Assembly: GCA_000004985.1 (NCBI GenBank)
Contig: GG738890.1
Reading direction: 5' to 3' (one strand)
Length of the DNA: 64,000 nt
DNA from: Naegleria gruberi
Lineage: Eukaryota
The notes under the pieces were generated by a model, which was not told the DNA's origin, did not search any database, and saw only the letters and a program-made list of their open reading frames with translations. Made by a program: the position numbers and the translations under genes. Below are positions 17,447 to 53,571 of the stretch, piece by piece (position 1 is the first letter of the stretch; the number at the start of each line of letters is the position of its first letter).

Positions 17447-17621
17447 ATGATGAAGAATAATTTAGGATTTAATTGTAAATATTGTAATTATCAATGAATT
17501 TGGATTATGAATAAACACGTCTCTATTGAGAATAGAGCTACGTGAGCTTGACTTTTCTCTACTTTTAAACTTTCAGCAATTAATTGATAGCATTGACTCT
17601 TTTTCCAATTGTTCTTTTTCA
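17447..17621. repeat. direct repeat copy 1 (~175 bp, ~95% identical to 21886-22059); orphan duplicate of the 3' end of the RNA-ligase gene
   Basis: By eye this aligns base-for-base with 21886-22059, with a few substitutions and 1-2 small indels. The flanking sequence diverges immediately outside both ends. Confidence 0.85.
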
Positions 17622-17794
17622 TCACTAGTGAAAGTTGAATTAAATTTGAAGATGTTCATTTCCATATCTAATGATTTCAATTGTTTTGCCTTACTAATAA
17701 CCTCCAATGTTTTATCATTTGTACTTGAAAAACCATATTGACATCCCAAACAAGTAGAGCTGCATGTTGCTATCTATTCTAACAACACAATAAT

Positions 17795-19422
17795 TCATAA
17801 TAACACACAATTTGGTTCTGATTTTGCTTTGTAATTTGTCACCTCAACTTTTGTCTTATCAATTAAAAGAGTTTTCAATTGATCTATTTTAGATTCATTT
17901 CTAATATTATTTGCTTGAATAGCAAGATGTTTCAATTGTTTCATTTCATTAATGTATTCAGCTCCAATATTTCCAATTCTATTATAACTAACATCAAGTT
18001 CGGTCAATTGTGTCAGTTGGCTTAGAAATTTACATCCTTCATCAGAAATATTATTAAGAGCCATGCTAAGATCAGTCAATTGGGTCAGTTCACTAATATT
18101 TTTACATCCATTATCGGAAATATTATTTCCATTTAGATATAGAATAGTTAGAGATTTCAGATTGGTGATGGATTTGATTGAATCATCGCCTATTGAACTT
18201 GAGCAAATGCGTAAGTCAGTTAATTGTGTCAATGTAGATAAATATTCGAAACTTTCTGCGTTAATCTTATTGTAACTGAATCTGAGACAAGTTAATTGTT
18301 TAAATTGACTGATATGTTTAGCTCCTTCACTTCCTATCTCATTATGACTAATATCAAGTTCAGTTAAATTACCAAGTTGACTAATATATTCCGTTCCTTC
18401 ATTACGAATACTATTATTATTAATTTCCAAAAACATCAACTGTTCCATTTCACTAATGAATTTAGCCCCTTCAGCGCCAATTTTGTTATCATAAATGGAA
18501 AGTCTTGTCAATTGTTTGAGTTTTCTAATTTTCTTACATCCTTCAGCTCGTAGATTATTCTCTATTATGGTAAGAGTAGTTAAGTTTCCCATCTCACTAA
18601 CATATTCGACACCTGTTTCACCAATATAATTGTTACTGATATCAAGATTGGTCAATTGTTTCATTTCACTTATGGATTTAGCACCTTCTTCACCAATTCT
18701 ATTACAATTAATTCCAAGATTGGTCAATTGATTGAGAGCTACAAGATATTTAGCACCTTCTGCACAAATGTCATTCACACCAATATTAAGAATTTTCAAT
18801 TGGCTTAATTGACCTATAAATTTAGCACCTTCTGCTCCCAACTCATTTGTTCTAATATCTAGATTAGTCAACTTTAATTTGGTCAAATAACTAGCTCCTT
18901 CAGCACTTATATTATTCCCATAAAGATTAGCACTTGTCAATTCTTTACATTCGCTCAAATATTTCACACCTTCATTTCCTATTCTATTGTAACCTATTTC
19001 AATACTTGTCAATCTTTTAAAATAATTTAATTATTATTAAATCCAATTGATATTGTCGATTTGTCTTCCACTTTTAGAAAAGTTACATTTTGTAAAAATT
19101 GTGATTTTTGCATTCGTGAATTCTTGTTGTAAAGTTTCAATGAAAGTTTCAATTTTTTTACAATATTTAACCACTGTTTGGAAACAAGTGCGCAATTTAG
19201 AATTAGAAATTTAAAATTTCGAGAATGACACAAGAAGGAAAGAGTCTCTAATAGTGTATCGTCTGAGAATTGTTTCGAATAATTGTTTGTTTCTTCCGAA
19301 TTATTAAACATTAATTTTTTACACTCTATTCCGATACGTGGCGATGATGATTCTTGTTCGGAATGAGAGGATTTAAAATTCGAAACTGGGACTGAAAAAT
19401 TCTTATTGTTCAATTCACTCAT
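17795..19422 (-). pseudogene. F-box / leucine-rich-repeat (RI-type LRR) protein gene, apparently disrupted between F-box exon and LRR body
   Basis: The upstream ORF (19027-19422) encodes an F-box (DTLLETLSFL...LVSKQWLNIV). The downstream ORF (17795-19012) encodes about 16 RI-type LRRs (L..L.I..N.IG.EGAK), but its first codon is TTG and its first ATG lies about 115 codons in. The two ORFs are in different frames 14 nt apart. No GT-AG intron restores the frame. A near-tandem duplication of an LRR-start segment (STISIGFNN / TSIEIGYNR) spans the junction. The gene could still be functional if I have missed a non-canonical intron. Confidence 0.5.
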
Positions 19423-21885: not shown

Positions 21886-22059
21886 TGATGAATAATTTAG
21901 GATTTAATTGTAAATATTGTAATTATCAATGAATTTGGAGATTACGAATAAACACGTCTCTATTGAGAATAGAGCTACGTGAGCTTGACTTTTCTCTACT
22001 TTTAACCATTCAGCAATTAATTGATAGCATTGACTCTTTTTCCAATTGTTCTTTTTCAT
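21886..22059. repeat. direct repeat copy 2; overlaps the last ~50 codons and stop of the RNA-ligase gene (minus strand)
   Basis: Partner of 17447-21621 with ~95% identity. On the minus strand it encodes ...ALFSIETCLFVISKFIDNYNIYN*. Confidence 0.85.
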
Positions 22060-23835
22060 TAGGATGGACATGATTTCATGAATTTGGAGTCGATAAATTT
22101 TACACAATTCACTTGATGGGATGCCTAGTGGTTGACCTTTGTAATATTGGATTTTCTCATCTGAAAACATTTCATCTCTTTGGTGAGCTTCATGATTAAG
22201 TAAGCATTTAGGATAGGAAGTGCATTGATACAGGAGTGTACCAACTTTGTACGTATGAATATCAAAACATTTACCACAATGACACTTTCTATATTGCACT
22301 AAATCTCTTTTCAGTCTTTTCAAAACCATAGCCTTCCCACAATAGCATTGTACCTTGTATTGGTTAGTTTTCTTGTCTAGAAATGGTTTCGTTTTGGCTA
22401 GACCATTGTTTGGCTCTGTAACTTTCAACTTCTTGGCTGGTTGGCAATAATTTTCAGAGTGCTTGCTTGCTCTACTACTAAGCACTGCACTCTCGAATGC
22501 CTCTTGTTGACTCTGACCAGAGAATAATTGAGCTACAATGTAAGTTGAATTATTCTTCAATAGTTGAGATAGTGTTGGTTTTTCAGAACAAGTGCTGTTT
22601 TTGAGGACCTTAATTAAATCAAATAATCTTGATCGATTTTTCACAGAGGGATCGTTTTGAAATGTTTCAAATTCTTGTTCGTTCATTTTAGAACAGGTAC
22701 TCCACAAACTTTCTAATTGTACAATTTCCTTTTGGAGAATATTCTTACAGTATTGATATCTAACTTCGAGTTCTTTCATTTCATATTCACATTCGTAGTA
22801 CTTGCTCAAAACTGAAATGATAAATGGCTTATCGGAATTACTCGATTTCTTATAGTCTTCAAAGTGAACAACGAACGGAATGAGGAATTTTGGAGTGGCT
22901 TGAATCCATCCTCTATATTTCATTTTATGAATGAGGAGATAGAATGGATTTTTCAATTTCAATCGCTGATTGTTGGTGTCTCTCATGATGAATCCTTCAA
23001 TTCTCAATCTTGCTTCTACATTCTCATGAGTAGAGATGAATGTATCCAAATGTTTGAGAGCTTGTTCCAGACTTGAAAAATTCTCAAAACGTTTTGGTCT
23101 CTTCCAATTCTTCAACTCGGCTCTCTTTCTCAATTTCAAGCAAATTTTATCAACTTGATCCCTGGAGAGTTCCTTTCCACTTTGTGTCTCTACAATTGTC
23201 AGTAAGTAAATGACAGGATTCTGATAGATTTGAACAATTTCATTTTGTGAGGAACACATTTCCAAACAATAGGTCAGTGATGGATCCAAATCCTTTCCAA
23301 TCTCATTCAATTCTACTCCGCCACAAATTTCCACAAATAGCTCTCTATATGTTTTCTGTGTTTCACTTCCAATTGCCAAATAATCCTCACAAAAGTTGTG
23401 TCTCGTTGCAATCATCCACTCTCCCTCATAGCAAAACATTAAAAGAAACGTTCCATCTTCCTTTGTCTCCAAACTGAAATTAGAATAATCAAACAATTTG
23501 GATTTCTCCAATGATGGCGACTGATCCTGTTCCAAAAACACCAATTCTCTATCATCATTTAGTCCTCTAATATTCGGAGAGGACGAATACGAATGGTGCT
23601 GATTAAAAAACCTGGTCATTCCTCTCGCCACAATTTTCCACGAATTTAATTCCAACACCAAGCCTCTGCATTCATTGACAATTTGTTCATCACGTGGCGA
23701 TTGAATATTGTCATAATTTAATACAATTAATGGGAAGGAAGTTTGATCGGGATGTGTTGATGAGCGAATTTTGTATTTTTCATGGAGAGTCGTGATGGAT
23801 TGACCCTTCTGTTGGAGGAATTGTTGTGTTTGCAT
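21904..23835 (-). CDS. Rnl2-family (ATP-dependent) RNA/polynucleotide ligase-like protein with Cys-rich C-terminal zinc-finger-like module
   Basis: Nucleotidyltransferase motif I is KEDG (LETKEDGTFLL). Motif IV EGFIMRD lies about 160 residues downstream and motif V LKLKN follows about 15 residues later. This spacing matches T4 Rnl2. The C-terminus has a CYCGK...CHCGKC...C cluster. The likely start is the internal Met (MQTQQF) at 23835, which has an A-rich context; the ORF itself extends to 23922. Confidence 0.55.
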   Translation of the reverse strand: MQTQQFLQQKGQSITTLHEKYKIRSSTHPDQTSFPLIVLNYDNIQSPRDEQIVNECRGLVLELNSWKIVARGMTRFFNQHHSYSSSPNIRGLNDDRELVFLEQDQSPSLEKSKLFDYSNFSLETKEDGTFLLMFCYEGEWMIATRHNFCEDYLAIGSETQKTYRELFVEICGGVELNEIGKDLDPSLTYCLEMCSSQNEIVQIYQNPVIYLLTIVETQSGKELSRDQVDKICLKLRKRAELKNWKRPKRFENFSSLEQALKHLDTFISTHENVEARLRIEGFIMRDTNNQRLKLKNPFYLLIHKMKYRGWIQATPKFLIPFVVHFEDYKKSSNSDKPFIISVLSKYYECEYEMKELEVRYQYCKNILQKEIVQLESLWSTCSKMNEQEFETFQNDPSVKNRSRLFDLIKVLKNSTCSEKPTLSQLLKNNSTYIVAQLFSGQSQQEAFESAVLSSRASKHSENYCQPAKKLKVTEPNNGLAKTKPFLDKKTNQYKVQCYCGKAMVLKRLKRDLVQYRKCHCGKCFDIHTYKVGTLLYQCTSYPKCLLNHEAHQRDEMFSDEKIQYYKGQPLGIPSSELCKIYRLQIHEIMSILMKKNNWKKSQCYQLIAEWLKVEKSQAHVALFSIETCLFVISKFIDNYNIYN

Positions 23836-24096: not shown

Positions 24097-25548
24097 CTAA
24101 TTATTGGTATCACTAATGTTATTAGATTCTTGTGCATTTTGTTGAGAAAGATAAACTCGAGTTGAATGTAAATGATCAAATAGGGAGGTATGAGTGAATT
24201 CCTCTGAAATCCATTCAGGAATTGCAGTTTCAAAAGTCCACTTGTCTGATAATTCGTAACGCCATGAATGTAGATGGATACTCAGTGGTACAGTGTCATC
24301 TTCCTCAATGTTTTTAGAGGTATATTCTGCATTACAGGAAATGCAAACAGTTTCAAATGGCTGTAAGAAGGTTTCCTCTTCAGGTCGAATGTTTGTATGT
24401 GAACGTTTGAAAGGACCTGGTTTTGGCTTTTTTGATTTGGGAGCATTCTTTTCAGAGGTCTCCTTTCTCTTGTGAGGATTTTCTTCTGTTGGTATGGAGG
24501 TATCTGTTGATGATTCACTATTTTCCAAGGAAATATCAGATGTTGATTCGAGTTGGTGATTGGAAAAGTCGACTCTCCAACTTTCTTCCAAAGTCTTTTT
24601 TTGCACTTCCAATTCCTTAATGAATTGTTCGTTATAGAAAAAATCATTAATGATAGGATTTCCAATAGATTCCAAATGAATTCTAATCTGATGTGTTCTT
24701 CCAGTGATTGGTTTACACATTATGAGTGAAATATCCTTTTCCTTATTGTAGACAATACCAGAAAAGAGAGTAATTGCCTCAAACGTTCCCAATTCATCAT
24801 CTGCTGACCAAGTTCCATTCTTGTGATTTTTGCAATATACCTTCTTTTCACATTTCACAAAACTGTTATTTAAATCCTTCACCAATCCACTCACTTCATA
24901 TTCTCCTTTCCACTTTCCTTTCACAACAGCCAAATAATATTTTCCAATTGCCTTTTCTCTTGTCTTGATCATTTCCACAATTTCTCCCGAAACCTTCTTA
25001 TTCTTTGCCAAAACAAGAACTCCCGATGTACTATGATCCAATCGATGAACAACATGAAGTGTTCCATATCCATTCTCCTCCAAAATATAAGTCAATGAAT
25101 TCTTTCGATATCTTCCACAGGGATGAATAGGAAAACTAGCTGGTTTATCGACAACTAATAAATCTGACTCATCATATAAAATTGGAATATTCCTATCAAA
25201 TATTGGTTTCTCATGAAAATGTACTCGATGAGCAATTGTCTTGCTTTTATCCCACTTTTCCTCTAAATTATTTAAATTTTCGTTATTAATTTTAAATCGA
25301 CCTAATTCGAAGGCTTTCATCAGATATTGTTCGGAAAAGTAGGGAAATTCCGCTCTATAGACATCAAGTACCTTCTTATCAACCCATCTATCTCGACATC
25401 CTGTTTGAAAGTCGAGAAAATAGGGAATTGCATGACGAAGTCCATTCCGAACAAGATATTGTTTGCCTCTTGCTAATTCAATGGTTTTCTTGACGAGGAG
25501 ATTTGAAGATGATGACACTGTTGGAATTGTTAGAGGCATCTCACTCAT
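24097..25548 (-). CDS. RluA-family RNA pseudouridine synthase (RPUSD-like)
   Basis: S4-like N-terminus and the RluA catalytic motif HRLDHSTSGVLVLAKN. The C-terminal tail is acidic and S-rich. Confidence 0.75.
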   Translation of the reverse strand: MSEMPLTIPTVSSSSNLLVKKTIELARGKQYLVRNGLRHAIPYFLDFQTGCRDRWVDKKVLDVYRAEFPYFSEQYLMKAFELGRFKINNENLNNLEEKWDKSKTIAHRVHFHEKPIFDRNIPILYDESDLLVVDKPASFPIHPCGRYRKNSLTYILEENGYGTLHVVHRLDHSTSGVLVLAKNKKVSGEIVEMIKTREKAIGKYYLAVVKGKWKGEYEVSGLVKDLNNSFVKCEKKVYCKNHKNGTWSADDELGTFEAITLFSGIVYNKEKDISLIMCKPITGRTHQIRIHLESIGNPIINDFFYNEQFIKELEVQKKTLEESWRVDFSNHQLESTSDISLENSESSTDTSIPTEENPHKRKETSEKNAPKSKKPKPGPFKRSHTNIRPEEETFLQPFETVCISCNAEYTSKNIEEDDTVPLSIHLHSWRYELSDKWTFETAIPEWISEEFTHTSLFDHLHSTRVYLSQQNAQESNNISDTNN

Positions 25549-50251: not shown

Positions 50252-50335
50252 GCTCATATAGCTCAGTGGTAGAGCATTTGTCTTATGAGAAATGAGGTTA
50301 GCAGATGGCCGAGGGTTCGACCCCCTCTATGAGCA
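50252..50335 (+). tRNA. tRNA-Ile(UAU): tRNA-Ile (anticodon UAU) with a 12-nt intron adjacent to the anticodon loop
   Basis: The acceptor GCTCATA pairs with TATGAGC. The D-arm is GCTC/AGTGGTA/GAGC. The anticodon stem TTTGT pairs with GCAGA (two G-U pairs) only after removing 50289-50300 (gaaatgaggtta). The loop is CTTATGA, the T-arm is GAGGG/TTCGACC/CCCTC, and the discriminator is A. A T7 run follows at 50344-50350. Confidence 0.7.
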
Positions 50336-50629: not shown

Positions 50630-53571
50630 AAATTGAGTGCGAAATTGGCTCCTCACTGCCAATTTGTTCTGTTGATGATGTTGCTGCAGTAGGTGATGGA
50701 AGATTTGAAGAGGCCGGTGCTGGTTGTAGTAGTAGCAGAGCTAGGATGGATATGAATTTAAAATTGTCATCATTAGAAAAATCATCTTTATCAGCACCTT
50801 CATCGTCAAGGCAGTTATCCACTTCTTTTGTTGGAAATAATAATAGTAGTACTAATATGATGGTTGTTCAACAACAACAACAACAACAACAGCCGAGGAA
50901 TAATTTTGACGGCAATGGTTTAAAGCAAGAAAAACCATCAACACAATTAGTGGAATCGAAACCGAGAACGGACTATCCAGATTATCATCAAGACAAGAAT
51001 GGAAAGAAATATGTAAATAATCAAGAAGAAGAAATTCAAAAGAAGAGTAGACTGCGGAAATTATATATTAAATACTTTAGGAATGTTTTTTTGGCTGATG
51101 AAGACGATCAATTGAAATATCAAATGAAAATACGAGCAGCAGAGGAGCAATACAAGATACTAATACTTTTAGGACTTAGTTTGAATTTAATCACGTCAAT
51201 ATTCTATATTGAATGGAATTTTATTAGACAAGTCAACTTTTTCTCATTGTGCTTCCTTGACACCTTTTTGGATATTGTGGTGCAGTTATTACTAATATTT
51301 TGTGGAGCTGCAAAGGATTTGCCAACACTGGAATTGGCTCACGTTTTTAAGAATTTAATTTTGGGCTCAGTGAGAGCTGTTAATCAAATCTATTCAGGGT
51401 TCTACTCACCCATATGGATAATGAATGGCTTTGCATTGCTTATATTTTCTCATGTGGCGTTTTTCAGAAATTCACTCTCTCTTATATCCTGTCTGACCCT
51501 CATTTTCAGTTCCATGTTTGGGCAGTATGTATCTTTCCAAGTAATGTTTTCAGAAGTGGAGAGGGGAGGAAGATTCATCACACTCACTCATCTTGAGAAG
51601 CAAACACCACACATGCATATGGTCTTGAATTCATCTATTTATTTACAAACTATTCTACAAAATACCATTATACAGGTGTTCATTCTTGCATTGGGAATCA
51701 TGTTCTCGAGAGATGTTGAAGAGCAGTACAGTAGAAGTATCCGATTTGAATATCAAATCAAAACTGAAAGGTTTTTAAATGCATCAAAAACCAAGTTTAT
51801 TGGAAACTTGTCTCATGAGGTGAGTGCTATTCTATTATTTGTACATTTTCAATTAATAACTATTTAAATTAATTATTTTAATTTTGAAAAATAGATGAGG
51901 AATCCATTACATGGAATGATTGGAATTATTGAAATTTTGAAAATAGAAATTAAAAAGATTATTGACACACTGAGCCAAACGGATTTTAACAAACATGAAA
52001 CAAGAGAACCAGTAATTAAGGAGGTAATCTCTGCTAGTGAATCGAACATTGACCTCATCGATGATATACACAGTAATGCAAGAATGCTCTTGAATATATT
52101 TTCCAATTCGCTTCAAATAAGTAGTCTCGAGTTGGGTCAATTGAAATTGAATTATAGCCACTTCAACATTCTGGAAATGAGCGATTCCATCATTTCAGTG
52201 TTTTCAACCATTGCAAGAGACAAGGGTCTTGTACTTCAGTCATTCTTTGATGTTGAAAATGTTCCAATCGTACTCAAAGCAGACTCGGTAAGACTCTCTC
52301 AAATTTTAATCAATATTGTATCCAATAGTGTCAAGTATACAAGGAATGGAAAGGTTATCTTCACTTGTGGAACAGTTGACAGATCAGATGCAGACTTTCC
52401 ATTCAAAGAAGAGAGGATTTCTCTCGATATTGGAGAATCTGAGCCTATTGAAGAGGATAATATTTGCTTTTTAAAAATTGAGTGTAAAGATACAGGAATT
52501 GGAATTGCTCCTGATCAGTTGGAAAAGTTATTTGAACCTTTTCATATTGTTGAGGAAAAGACTGTGAAACAAAATATGGAATTTGATAGGTACTATACCC
52601 AATCCGTTGTTAACACTAACAATTCATTCAACGATAGACACGGCCTCGGATTGAGCATCTCCCACAAATTGATTCAATTAATGAGGGGAAAGATTATTGT
52701 AAAGAGTAAAGTCAATGAAGGAACGACAATCACTCTCTACATTCCAACAATCAAAATTCCACAAGAGGAATCGAAACAGTATTCTGAATGCATACATAAT
52801 AAGATTAAAGAATTGGAAACGAGCGATGTCAGAGAAGTATTAATTTTAGACGACGATGACGGAGTGAAAGATGTTCTTCACAAGTATTGTGCATTTGTTT
52901 TCAAAAAACCAATCAGAGAACTATCCACTGAGAAGGATGCCATAGATTTTTTCAATAGCACAACCAATCTTAATAATTGTTTGATACTGTACAATTCAAA
53001 CAAGTTTTCCTCTCCGTTCTCCATGAATATTAATGCGAAGGAAAATATCATCATTCAGCTTTGTTCTCGATCAACAACATCCAATTTGAACTCTAACACA
53101 CTCTATCTTCCTTTCAAATTTGAAAAGTTTATCAATATTTTGTACAATAATATTGTTGTAAAGAATAAGGAAAATGACAAGTCATTCCATATTGATAAGG
53201 TTGCAAATGGCGCCAAGAGAGCTCTCGTTGTCGATGATAATGATGTCAATAGAAAAGTACTTCAGAAATTAATGACCCTTCTTGGCTTTGAAGTGGAAAC
53301 AGCTGCTGATGGTTTGGAAGCTTTTGAGATGGTGAAAAAAACGTCAAGACCATACGATATTATTCTAATGGATCTGCTAATGCCAGTCCTTTGCGGAAAG
53401 GAGAGCTGCAAACTCATGAGAGATTTAAAATGCTCTGCCAAGATTATTGCTGTCACTGCAAACATTTGGGAAAGCATGGATACCATTCAACAGGCAGGAT
53501 TTGATTCTGTTTTGAGGAAACCAGTCATGCTTAATGACCTCCGAAAAGAACTCTCTAAATATCTTAACTAG
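50630..53571 (+). CDS. hybrid sensor histidine kinase (TM sensor region, HisKA, HATPase_c, C-terminal receiver domain); 2 exons
   Basis: A 75-nt intron at 51820-51894 (gtgagtgct...aaaaatag) splits the H-box, giving LSHE|MRNPLHGMIG. The ATPase G-box is HGLGLSISHKLIQLMRGKI. The receiver domain is ALVVDDNDVNRKVL...YDIILMDLLMP...K. There are several TM helices N-terminal to the kinase. The start is taken as MKEEIEC at 50630, after an A9 tract; the ORF extends to 50500. Confidence 0.8.
50870..50893 (+). repeat. (CAA)n microsatellite encoding a poly-Q run inside the histidine-kinase N-terminal region
   Basis: caacaacaacaacaacaacaacag is visible directly in the sequence. Confidence 0.6.

Follow-up and report, generated by a model that had tools for sequence, protein, structure and literature searches.

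The ligase gene and its product

The stretch of DNA analysed here (the window) comprises 64,000 nucleotides of contig GG738890.1 from Naegleria gruberi, and this report concerns a CDS (coding sequence) on its minus strand that is predicted to encode an RNA ligase with a zinc ribbon-like C-terminal module. The open reading frame (ORF) starts with an ATG at position 23835, has its stop codon at 21904–21906, and is uninterrupted over 643 codons. By exact-sequence look-up it is identical to NAEGRDRAFT_80922 (EFC40808.1, XP_002673552.1, UniProt D2VR12), an annotated nuclear gene of N. gruberi with a G+C content like that of its surroundings, and the UniRef name of D2VR12 is 'T4 RNA ligase 1-like N-terminal domain-containing protein'. 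In N. fowleri and N. lovaniensis there are orthologues with 54–56% identity across 99% of the length. A preliminary description of the locus had given this gene the same coordinates together with KEDG, EGF and LKLK motifs and a Cys-rich C-terminus, all of which are correct on translation of 21904–23835. The domains, motifs and other features are listed in Table 1.

Table 1. Position of the ligase gene, its predicted domains and motifs, and other features of the window (aa, amino acids; nt, nucleotides; AF2, AlphaFold2; pLDDT, predicted local distance difference test).
Feature	Position	Strand	Basis
Complete ligase CDS, 643 aa and stop	21904..23835	-	ORF list and translation
Adenylyltransferase domain, aa 1–299	22939..23835	-	PF09511, PDB profile search, hhalign, Foldseek
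Low-confidence, species-variable insert between N-terminal sub-domain and motif I, aa 81–112	23500..23595	-	pLDDT <50 (AF2); gapped and variable in the 12-sequence alignment
Motif I, KEDG, aa 125–128; K125 is the predicted AMP-accepting lysine	23452..23463	-	Aligned to T4 Rnl1 K99-E-D-G; K in 62/65 homologues
Motif III region, TYCLEMCSSQN, aa 188–198, with E192 and N198	23242..23274	-	Aligned to T4 'TANFEFVAPTN' (E159)
Motif IV, EGF, aa 280–282	22990..22998	-	Aligned to T4 E227-G228; E in 63/65, G in 65/65 homologues
Motif V, LKLK, aa 292–295, with K293 and K295	22951..22962	-	Aligned to T4 K240/K242 'FKIKS'; each K in 62/65 homologues
All-helical middle domain, aa 300–458, beginning with the family-specific HKxKYRGW	22462..22938	-	AF2 helices 297 to 453
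Cys/His-rich module, aa 459–643; short beta-hairpins including a zinc ribbon of topoisomerase type, followed by three helices	21907..22461	-	PF11672 aa 528–633; AF2
Duplication copy B: final ~51 codons of the ligase with the stop, and 18 nt of 3' flanking DNA	21886..22059		Window self-match
Duplication copy A: ligase 3'-end fragment with frameshift, non-functional	17451..17622		Match to copy B
Leucine-rich repeat (LRR) gene, 405 aa	17795..19012	-	
72-nt DNA periodicity	17996..18847		
P-loop NTPase-like ORF, 765 aa	19557..21854	+	Weak AAA_22, AAA and nSTAND matches
RluA-type pseudouridine synthase (EFC40809.1)	24097..25548	-	PF00849
DEAH-box helicase with RRM and IBR, 1746 aa	25612..30852	-	
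tRNA-Ile(UAU), 84 nt	50252..50335	+	
Hybrid histidine kinase	51895..53571	+	
PAS-domain adenylate/guanylate cyclase, 1596 aa	58377..63167	+	

The inferred protein carries the signature of covalent lysine nucleotidyltransferases, a KxDG motif followed by motifs III, IV and V in this order. The lysine of KEDG is at the position of the motif I nucleophile, K125 aligning to K99 in the KEDGS of T4 Rnl1, and further equivalent residues in the two proteins are R57 and R54, R75-F76 and K75-F76, E192 and E159, E280-G281 and E227-G228, and K293/K295 and K240/K242. In an alignment of 12 sequences K125, D127, G128, E192, E280, G281, K293 and K295 are invariant, and so are R57 and F76 of the N-terminal sub-domain but not R75, which aligns to K75 of T4. 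Among 65 more distant homologues the eight motif residues are kept in 60–65 sequences, E192 for instance in 62, and those of the equivalent positions that were checked in this larger set in 56–65; N198 is found in 58. A sub-domain located before the motif I lysine is common to T4 Rnl1, Trl1 and MthRnl, and in the Michaelis complex of T4 Rnl1 its R54 and K75 touch the gamma-phosphate of ATP (adenosine triphosphate) and F76 touches the adenine (PMC6379707). An Rnl1-type sub-domain of this kind, with R57, R75 and F76, precedes K125 in the Naegleria ligase. The aligned and conserved motifs support the earlier suggestion that the gene should encode a covalent nucleotidyltransferase of the RNA ligase branch, and the protein is very probably an active, Rnl1-like and ATP-dependent RNA ligase.

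Assignment to the Rnl1 type

The Pfam profile PF09511 (RNA_lig_T4_1, Rnl1/Trl1 type) matches residues 55–299 over all of its 227 positions with E = 9.8e-23, and the Rnl2-type profile PF09414 ('RNA_ligase') gives no match at E <= 1. The best family in PHROGs is phrog_562, the T4 RnlA family, with 1.5e-31. A family profile of 12 sequences run against PDB finds T4 Rnl1 with 1.4e-23 and the ligase domain of Candida glabrata Trl1 (Trl1-LIG) with 5.9e-6; Rnl2 and REL1 chains are absent from the matches up to E = 10. With hhalign the match to T4 Rnl1 has a probability of 98.9% and E = 2e-17. The AlphaFold2 model of the ligase has a mean pLDDT of 83 and a predicted template modelling score (pTM) of 0.74, and when it was compared with PDB by Foldseek T4 Rnl1 came out on top (5e-15), Trl1-LIG being the second-best match (1e-8), with Rnl3 at 3e-8, NgrRnl (Rnl5) at 1e-5 on rank 25 and T4 Rnl2 at 4e-5 on rank 35. 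An identity as capping enzyme or DNA ligase was rejected, as neither has a Pfam match and DNA ligases appear in the Foldseek list from rank 23 at E = 6e-6 or weaker; neither type is thus the best profile match, a possibility that had been raised when the locus was first described.

The preliminary description had placed the protein in the Rnl2 family, with T4 Rnl2 and trypanosome REL1 which seal nicks in duplex RNA, and this assignment is contradicted by the profile and fold comparisons. It was based on KxDG, EG and KxK motifs, which are generic, and on a distance between motifs I and IV of about 160 aa. The distance is indeed 155 aa, from K125 to E280, but it does not indicate Rnl2: the corresponding values are 128 aa in T4 Rnl1 (K99–E227) and 169 aa in T4 Rnl2 (K35–E204), and a spacing that falls between the two, although closer to T4 Rnl2, is therefore uninformative on family, the length being due to inserts relative to T4 Rnl1. 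Weak matches to PF09414 in 4 of 65 relatives that carry the C-terminal module also speak for an Rnl2 origin, but besides the missing PF09414 match and the lack of Rnl2 and REL1 chains in the PDB search, and the low Foldseek rank of T4 Rnl2 (4e-5 as compared to 5e-15 for Rnl1), the protein has a conserved N-terminal sub-domain of Rnl1 type, and the Pfam scan found no Rnl2-type C-domain. An Rnl2-type enzyme is accordingly regarded as very improbable, and judged from sequence profiles and the predicted fold the catalytic half is of T4 Rnl1 type, not Rnl2.

The Naegleria protein shares with T4 Rnl1 (RnlA; PDB 2C5U, 5TT6, 9DO4), its top match in both sequence and fold, a two-part adenylyltransferase domain consisting of an N-terminal sub-domain and a nucleotidyltransferase (NTase) core, with aligned ECRG (R54/R57), K/R75-F76, KEDG, E159/E192, EG and KxK. 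It differs by a disordered insert of about 30 aa before motif I, by an extra Cys/His module of about 185 aa, and by being encoded by a eukaryotic nuclear gene. NgrRnl (Rnl5), another N. gruberi member of the superfamily, differs in having an OB-like domain at the N-terminus and nothing appended at the C-terminus, and is a distant fold match to the Rnl1-like ligase described here. Whole-protein alignments, both in the PDB profile search and with hhalign, extend into the C-domain of T4 Rnl1, which is also helical and in the same position as the middle domain of the Naegleria protein.

The C-terminal Cys/His-rich module

The C-terminal cysteines are arranged as CYC (497–499) and CHC (518–520), followed by C523, C538, C544, C578 and C628. 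Residues 528–633 match DUF3268 (PF11672, 'zinc-finger-containing domain') with 31.5 bits, above the Pfam cut-off of 28.4, which is consistent with the earlier mention of a zinc-binding-like region in this part of the protein, and the module also matches phrog_1934 at 1e-8. When residues 476–643 were modelled alone by AlphaFold2 a mean pLDDT of 91 was obtained, the model showing three helices after nine short beta-strands. With the 163-aa module as the only query, a homology search gave nothing usable.

Eleven Cys/His positions are invariant or nearly so, namely H459, C464, C497, C499, C518, C520, C538, C544, H586, H619 and C628. Conservation among the 65 homologues is complete for C497, C499 and C538, and is 64 for C544, 63 for C518, 61 for C520, 60 for C464, 59 each for H459, H586 and H619, and 56 for C628, with H548 (54) and C578 (47) somewhat lower. 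Judged by composition, this set would suffice for two predicted zinc sites and possibly a third. The arrangement C518/C520...C538-x5-C544 ('YQCTSYPKC') resembles a C4 ribbon of the topoisomerase type, and a stand-alone relative of the module (P0155) matches Zn_ribbon_Top1 with 7.5e-9.

DUF3268 consists of small zinc-finger proteins of bacteria and phages, and has in common with the module a zinc ribbon of the form C-x-C/C-x2-C...C-x3-5-C, followed by G-x-P-x-G-x-P, R-x-x-x-H and H...C helices; the ribbon cysteines and the H...H...C pattern are also seen in stand-alone members. Structural matches of the module are to uncharacterised proteins of phages and of Orpheovirus. In contrast to the ligase module, the stand-alone forms are 110–190 aa long, are without the N-terminal hairpins that bear H459, C464, C497 and C499, and are not linked to ligases.

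The module has an isoelectric point (pI) of 9.3 and is basic in 11 of 14 homologues, and in the proposed reading it would help to select the RNA substrate. As an alternative, the catalytic domain could be a genuine ligase joined to a module that does not bind RNA, and that instead acts in protein–protein docking or as an enzymatic domain, e.g. by recruiting healing enzymes or by providing a His/Cys active site. The basic character of the module speaks against this, as does the topoisomerase-type zinc ribbon recognized by Pfam in P0155, ribbons of this type being known to bind single-stranded nucleic acid, and the location of one phage copy among genes for DNA metabolism. A docking or enzymatic module is considered unlikely, and a role of the module in targeting RNA within a heal-and-seal pathway is given about even odds.

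Distribution and domain fusions

A profile of the module was run against a representative library of 1.8 billion proteins, and 1409 clusters were found. The top ~90 are mostly proteins of 450–700 aa with the module at the C-terminus, and the rest are mostly stand-alone proteins of 110–190 aa. In 65 long module-bearing proteins that were scanned, PF09511 was found in 49 and PF09414 in 4, and the DUF3268 threshold was reached in 53. The architecture with ligase followed by module is present in about 50 protein clusters, which are protist-like. Among named organisms the full architecture occurs in N. gruberi, N. lovaniensis, N. fowleri and Pelomyxa schiedti, and a search with a profile of 65 sequences gave no further named taxa. 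Contigs that harbour other members encode eukaryote-type proteins with HMG box, ubiquitin, RING and Rce1 domains.

In some relatives the ligase and the module are followed by yet another domain. One protein (P0085) consists of a ligase fragment, the module and a P-loop kinase of the Zeta-toxin/AAA_33 type, and another (P0014) of ligase, module and a 2H phosphoesterase; P0095, a fragment, is built like P0014. The Trl1-type heal-and-seal pathway combines three activities, those of ligase, polynucleotide kinase and cyclic phosphodiesterase (PMC6379707), indicating that the likeliest role of the ligase would be the sealing step of heal-and-seal RNA repair. The kinase and 2H fusions are the main evidence for a presumed role of the family in RNA repair or RNA end-joining.

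The same fusions also recall fungal Trl1 (Rnl6; PDB 6N67, 6N0T, 9QW7), with which the Naegleria protein has the Rnl1-like adenylyltransferase domain in common, and the ligase might then be of the Trl1 or Rnl6 type, requiring a 2'-phosphate at the 3'-OH end and acting in tRNA splicing or non-conventional mRNA splicing together with a separate kinase and cyclic phosphodiesterase (CPDase). Trl1-LIG is the second-best match in sequence as well as in fold, the domains joined to the ligase-module unit in relatives represent the two healing activities of Trl1, and the conserved basic HKxKYRGW after motif V is located roughly at the RxxR 2'-PO4 site of Trl1 (PMC6379707), which is a positional lead only. 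On the other hand, the Naegleria protein has neither a kinase (KIN) nor a cyclic phosphodiesterase (CPD) domain, PF09511 and PF11672 being the only domains found by Pfam, and no part of it was found to resemble the Trl1 C-domain. The order of domains is LIG-KIN-CPD in Trl1, as compared to LIG-Zn module-KIN or LIG-Zn module-CPD in the relatives. In addition, the similarity to T4 Rnl1 is far stronger (1.4e-23 versus 5.9e-6), and tRNA splicing could be served by the two RtcB ligases of N. gruberi (PMC4408790). A Trl1-like ligase in this sense is thought to be quite unlikely.

Proposed function

The interpretation preferred here is that of an RNA repair sealing enzyme, in which an adenylyltransferase of T4 Rnl1 type is combined with a zinc-ribbon targeting module, and the probability of this reading as a whole is estimated to roughly 0.7. 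By homology to T4 Rnl1 and Trl1, K125 should attack ATP in a two-metal reaction to give a ligase-AMP (adenosine monophosphate) intermediate, with R57 and R75 holding the gamma-phosphate and F76 contacting the adenine. AMP would then be passed from the ligase to the 5'-phosphate of the RNA, and the break would be sealed when the RNA 3'-OH attacks the adenylylated end. The choice of substrate might come from the two domains located after motif V, i.e. the helical domain and the basic zinc module, as suggested by composition and by the fusions. The role of the enzyme would be in the sealing step of heal-and-seal repair, for example of broken tRNA or other RNA loops, and in N. gruberi end-healing would be supplied in trans. 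What the data show is an intact gene, conserved catalytic residues and Cys/His positions, a confidently predicted fold and the domain fusions; catalysis, the binding of zinc, RNA binding by the module and the physiological substrate are inferred.

Several observations weigh against this interpretation. A profile of the middle domain alone, built from 26 sequences, finds neither T4 Rnl1 nor any other ligase in PDB, and with hhalign its probability against T4 residues 247–374 is 0.6%. An identification of the middle domain with the C-domain of T4 Rnl1 was thus dropped, the similarity not being significant when the domain is tested alone, and since the sequence of the helical domain is not significantly similar to that of the T4 Rnl1 domain for tRNA specificity, a T4-like specificity for the tRNA anticodon loop is not to be assumed. 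The NCBIfam model TIGR02308 (T4 RnlA equivalog) gives 34 bits against a cut-off of 242, and the protein is therefore not an orthologue of T4 RnlA; it has an Rnl1-like adenylyltransferase domain with C-terminal appendages different from those of T4 RnlA. The organisms with kinase and 2H fusions are uncultured, and two of these fusion proteins are fragments.

Stand-alone DUF3268 genes are found in 593 phage records, and in the two phage neighbourhoods that were inspected the contexts are mixed with no RNA-repair signal in either, one gene being located in a replication and recombination block that also encodes a RecA-like protein, Cas4 exonuclease and helicase, and the other among tail genes. 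The module is accordingly not restricted to RNA repair, and for the stand-alone form the most fitting description is that of a general zinc domain associated with nucleic acids. There is furthermore no synteny with N. lovaniensis, where the ligase orthologue has other neighbours, so that the context gives no functional inference; in a eukaryote the gene neighbourhood carries no information.

In RNA ligases it is the domains added to the NTase core that define a family (PMC6379707), and by this criterion the ligase-plus-module proteins might be regarded as a distinct and previously undescribed clade of eukaryotic RNA ligases. In that clade heal-and-seal RNA repair in amoebae and other protists would be directed by the multi-zinc module, by a route distinct from Trl1 and RtcB; some lineages would show it in the form of LIG-Zn-KIN and LIG-Zn-CPD fusions. 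We put forward this extension tentatively, and on present grounds it is somewhat doubtful.

Duplication of the ligase 3' end and neighbouring genes

As indicated in the preliminary description, the 3' end of the ligase gene takes part in a local duplication. Copy A (172 nt) and copy B (174 nt) are in direct orientation 4.4 kb apart, with 168 matches, 4 mismatches and one 2-nt indel, and a core of 43 nt is present in exactly two copies in the window, 0 being expected by chance. The minus-strand remnant in copy A reads ...KKNNWKKSQCYQLIAESLKVEKSQAHVALFSIETCLF... in translation. This frameshifted fragment, and the many ligase paralogues in N. gruberi, might indicate that the ligase is itself a decaying or inactive gene copy. 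However, degeneracy is confined to the 172-nt fragment, every catalytic residue of the ligase is intact, and a pseudogene is excluded since the full ORF is open and the orthologues in N. fowleri and N. lovaniensis are full-length at 54–56% identity; a decaying copy is therefore hardly credible.

The direct repeats enclose a block of 4.26 kb containing the LRR gene and the P-loop NTPase-like ORF, and this looks like an insertion or a rearrangement that duplicated the ligase 3' end. The 72-nt periodicity, with at least 9 copies of 60–80% identity, corresponds to the 24-aa leucine-rich repeats of the LRR protein, encoded on the minus strand. The P-loop matches of the 765-aa ORF have E values from 1e-3 to 0.2, and its exact sequence is absent from the protein collection though its neighbours are annotated N. 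gruberi proteins, so that it may be unannotated or differently modelled.

The window is AT-rich, with a G+C content of about 33–35% and densely packed long ORFs, and an ENA metagenome contig carries the identical gene arrangement. The ORFs are of eukaryotic type and include Kelch-BTB, WD40, LRR, syntaxin, RIO kinase and patatin proteins, as well as a DEAH helicase with RRM and IBR domains and a PAS-adenylate cyclase. Several of them were matched by exact-sequence look-up to N. gruberi proteins on a scaffold of 350,200 bp. Directly upstream of the ligase, on the same strand, is the gene for the RluA-type pseudouridine synthase, a second RNA-modifying enzyme next door, but this adjacency is not kept in N. 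lovaniensis. There, a eukaryotic gene for a Fanzor/TnpB-like protein of 972 aa with OrfB_IS605 and Cas12f1-like TNB domains (PYSW02000054.1, 13331–16381) is located about 1.2 kb downstream of the ligase orthologue. The 1746-aa protein has a DEAH-box helicase core (DEAD, Helicase_C, HA2 and OB_NTP_bind) together with RRM and IBR (RBR-type half-RING), an unusual combination of helicase, RNA-binding and ubiquitin-ligase-like parts. The tRNA-Ile(UAU) call is about 10 nt above the standard tRNA length and may contain a short intron, which is of relevance because spliced tRNA halves need an RNA ligase. Two genes encode signalling proteins of bacterial style in this eukaryotic window, the hybrid histidine kinase (HATPase_c and response-regulator receiver) and the PAS-domain cyclase.

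RNA ligases of Naegleria gruberi

The genome of N. gruberi is reported to encode 13 ATP-dependent RNA ligases and two RtcB, the former being divided into seven of Rnl1 type, five of Rnl2 type and one Rnl5, of which NgrRnl is the sole characterised one (Unciuleac and Shuman, PMC4408790). This is by far the largest repertoire of RNA ligases reported for a eukaryote, and the assertion in the preliminary description that such ligases are uncommon in eukaryotic nuclear genomes fails for N. gruberi. EFC40808.1 is absent from the seven Rnl1-type accessions listed in PMC4408790 and should therefore be an additional Rnl1-like ligase of the organism, and the published count may be too low. The gene as such is already known, as it has been catalogued and named by domain, and the abundance of RNA ligases in N. 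gruberi has been published, but its accession numbers are not mentioned in the searchable literature. In that literature NAEGRDRAFT_80922 appears to be undescribed as an Rnl1-like ligase beyond the seven listed, and the same appears to hold for the recurrent combination of an Rnl1-like ligase with a helical domain and a DUF3268-type zinc module, and for the fusion of this ligase-module unit to healing domains in other protists.

The chemistry almost certainly follows the classic ligase pathway, and the significance of the finding is for that reason modest, being an incremental addition to a well-understood enzyme class with no new principle. The enzyme could serve as a tool, and if the module sets the substrate specificity it would represent a further way of targeting RNA ligases. 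The fusions to healing enzymes offer a concrete and testable context, namely RNA repair, for an otherwise anonymous family of domains that is frequent in phages as well.

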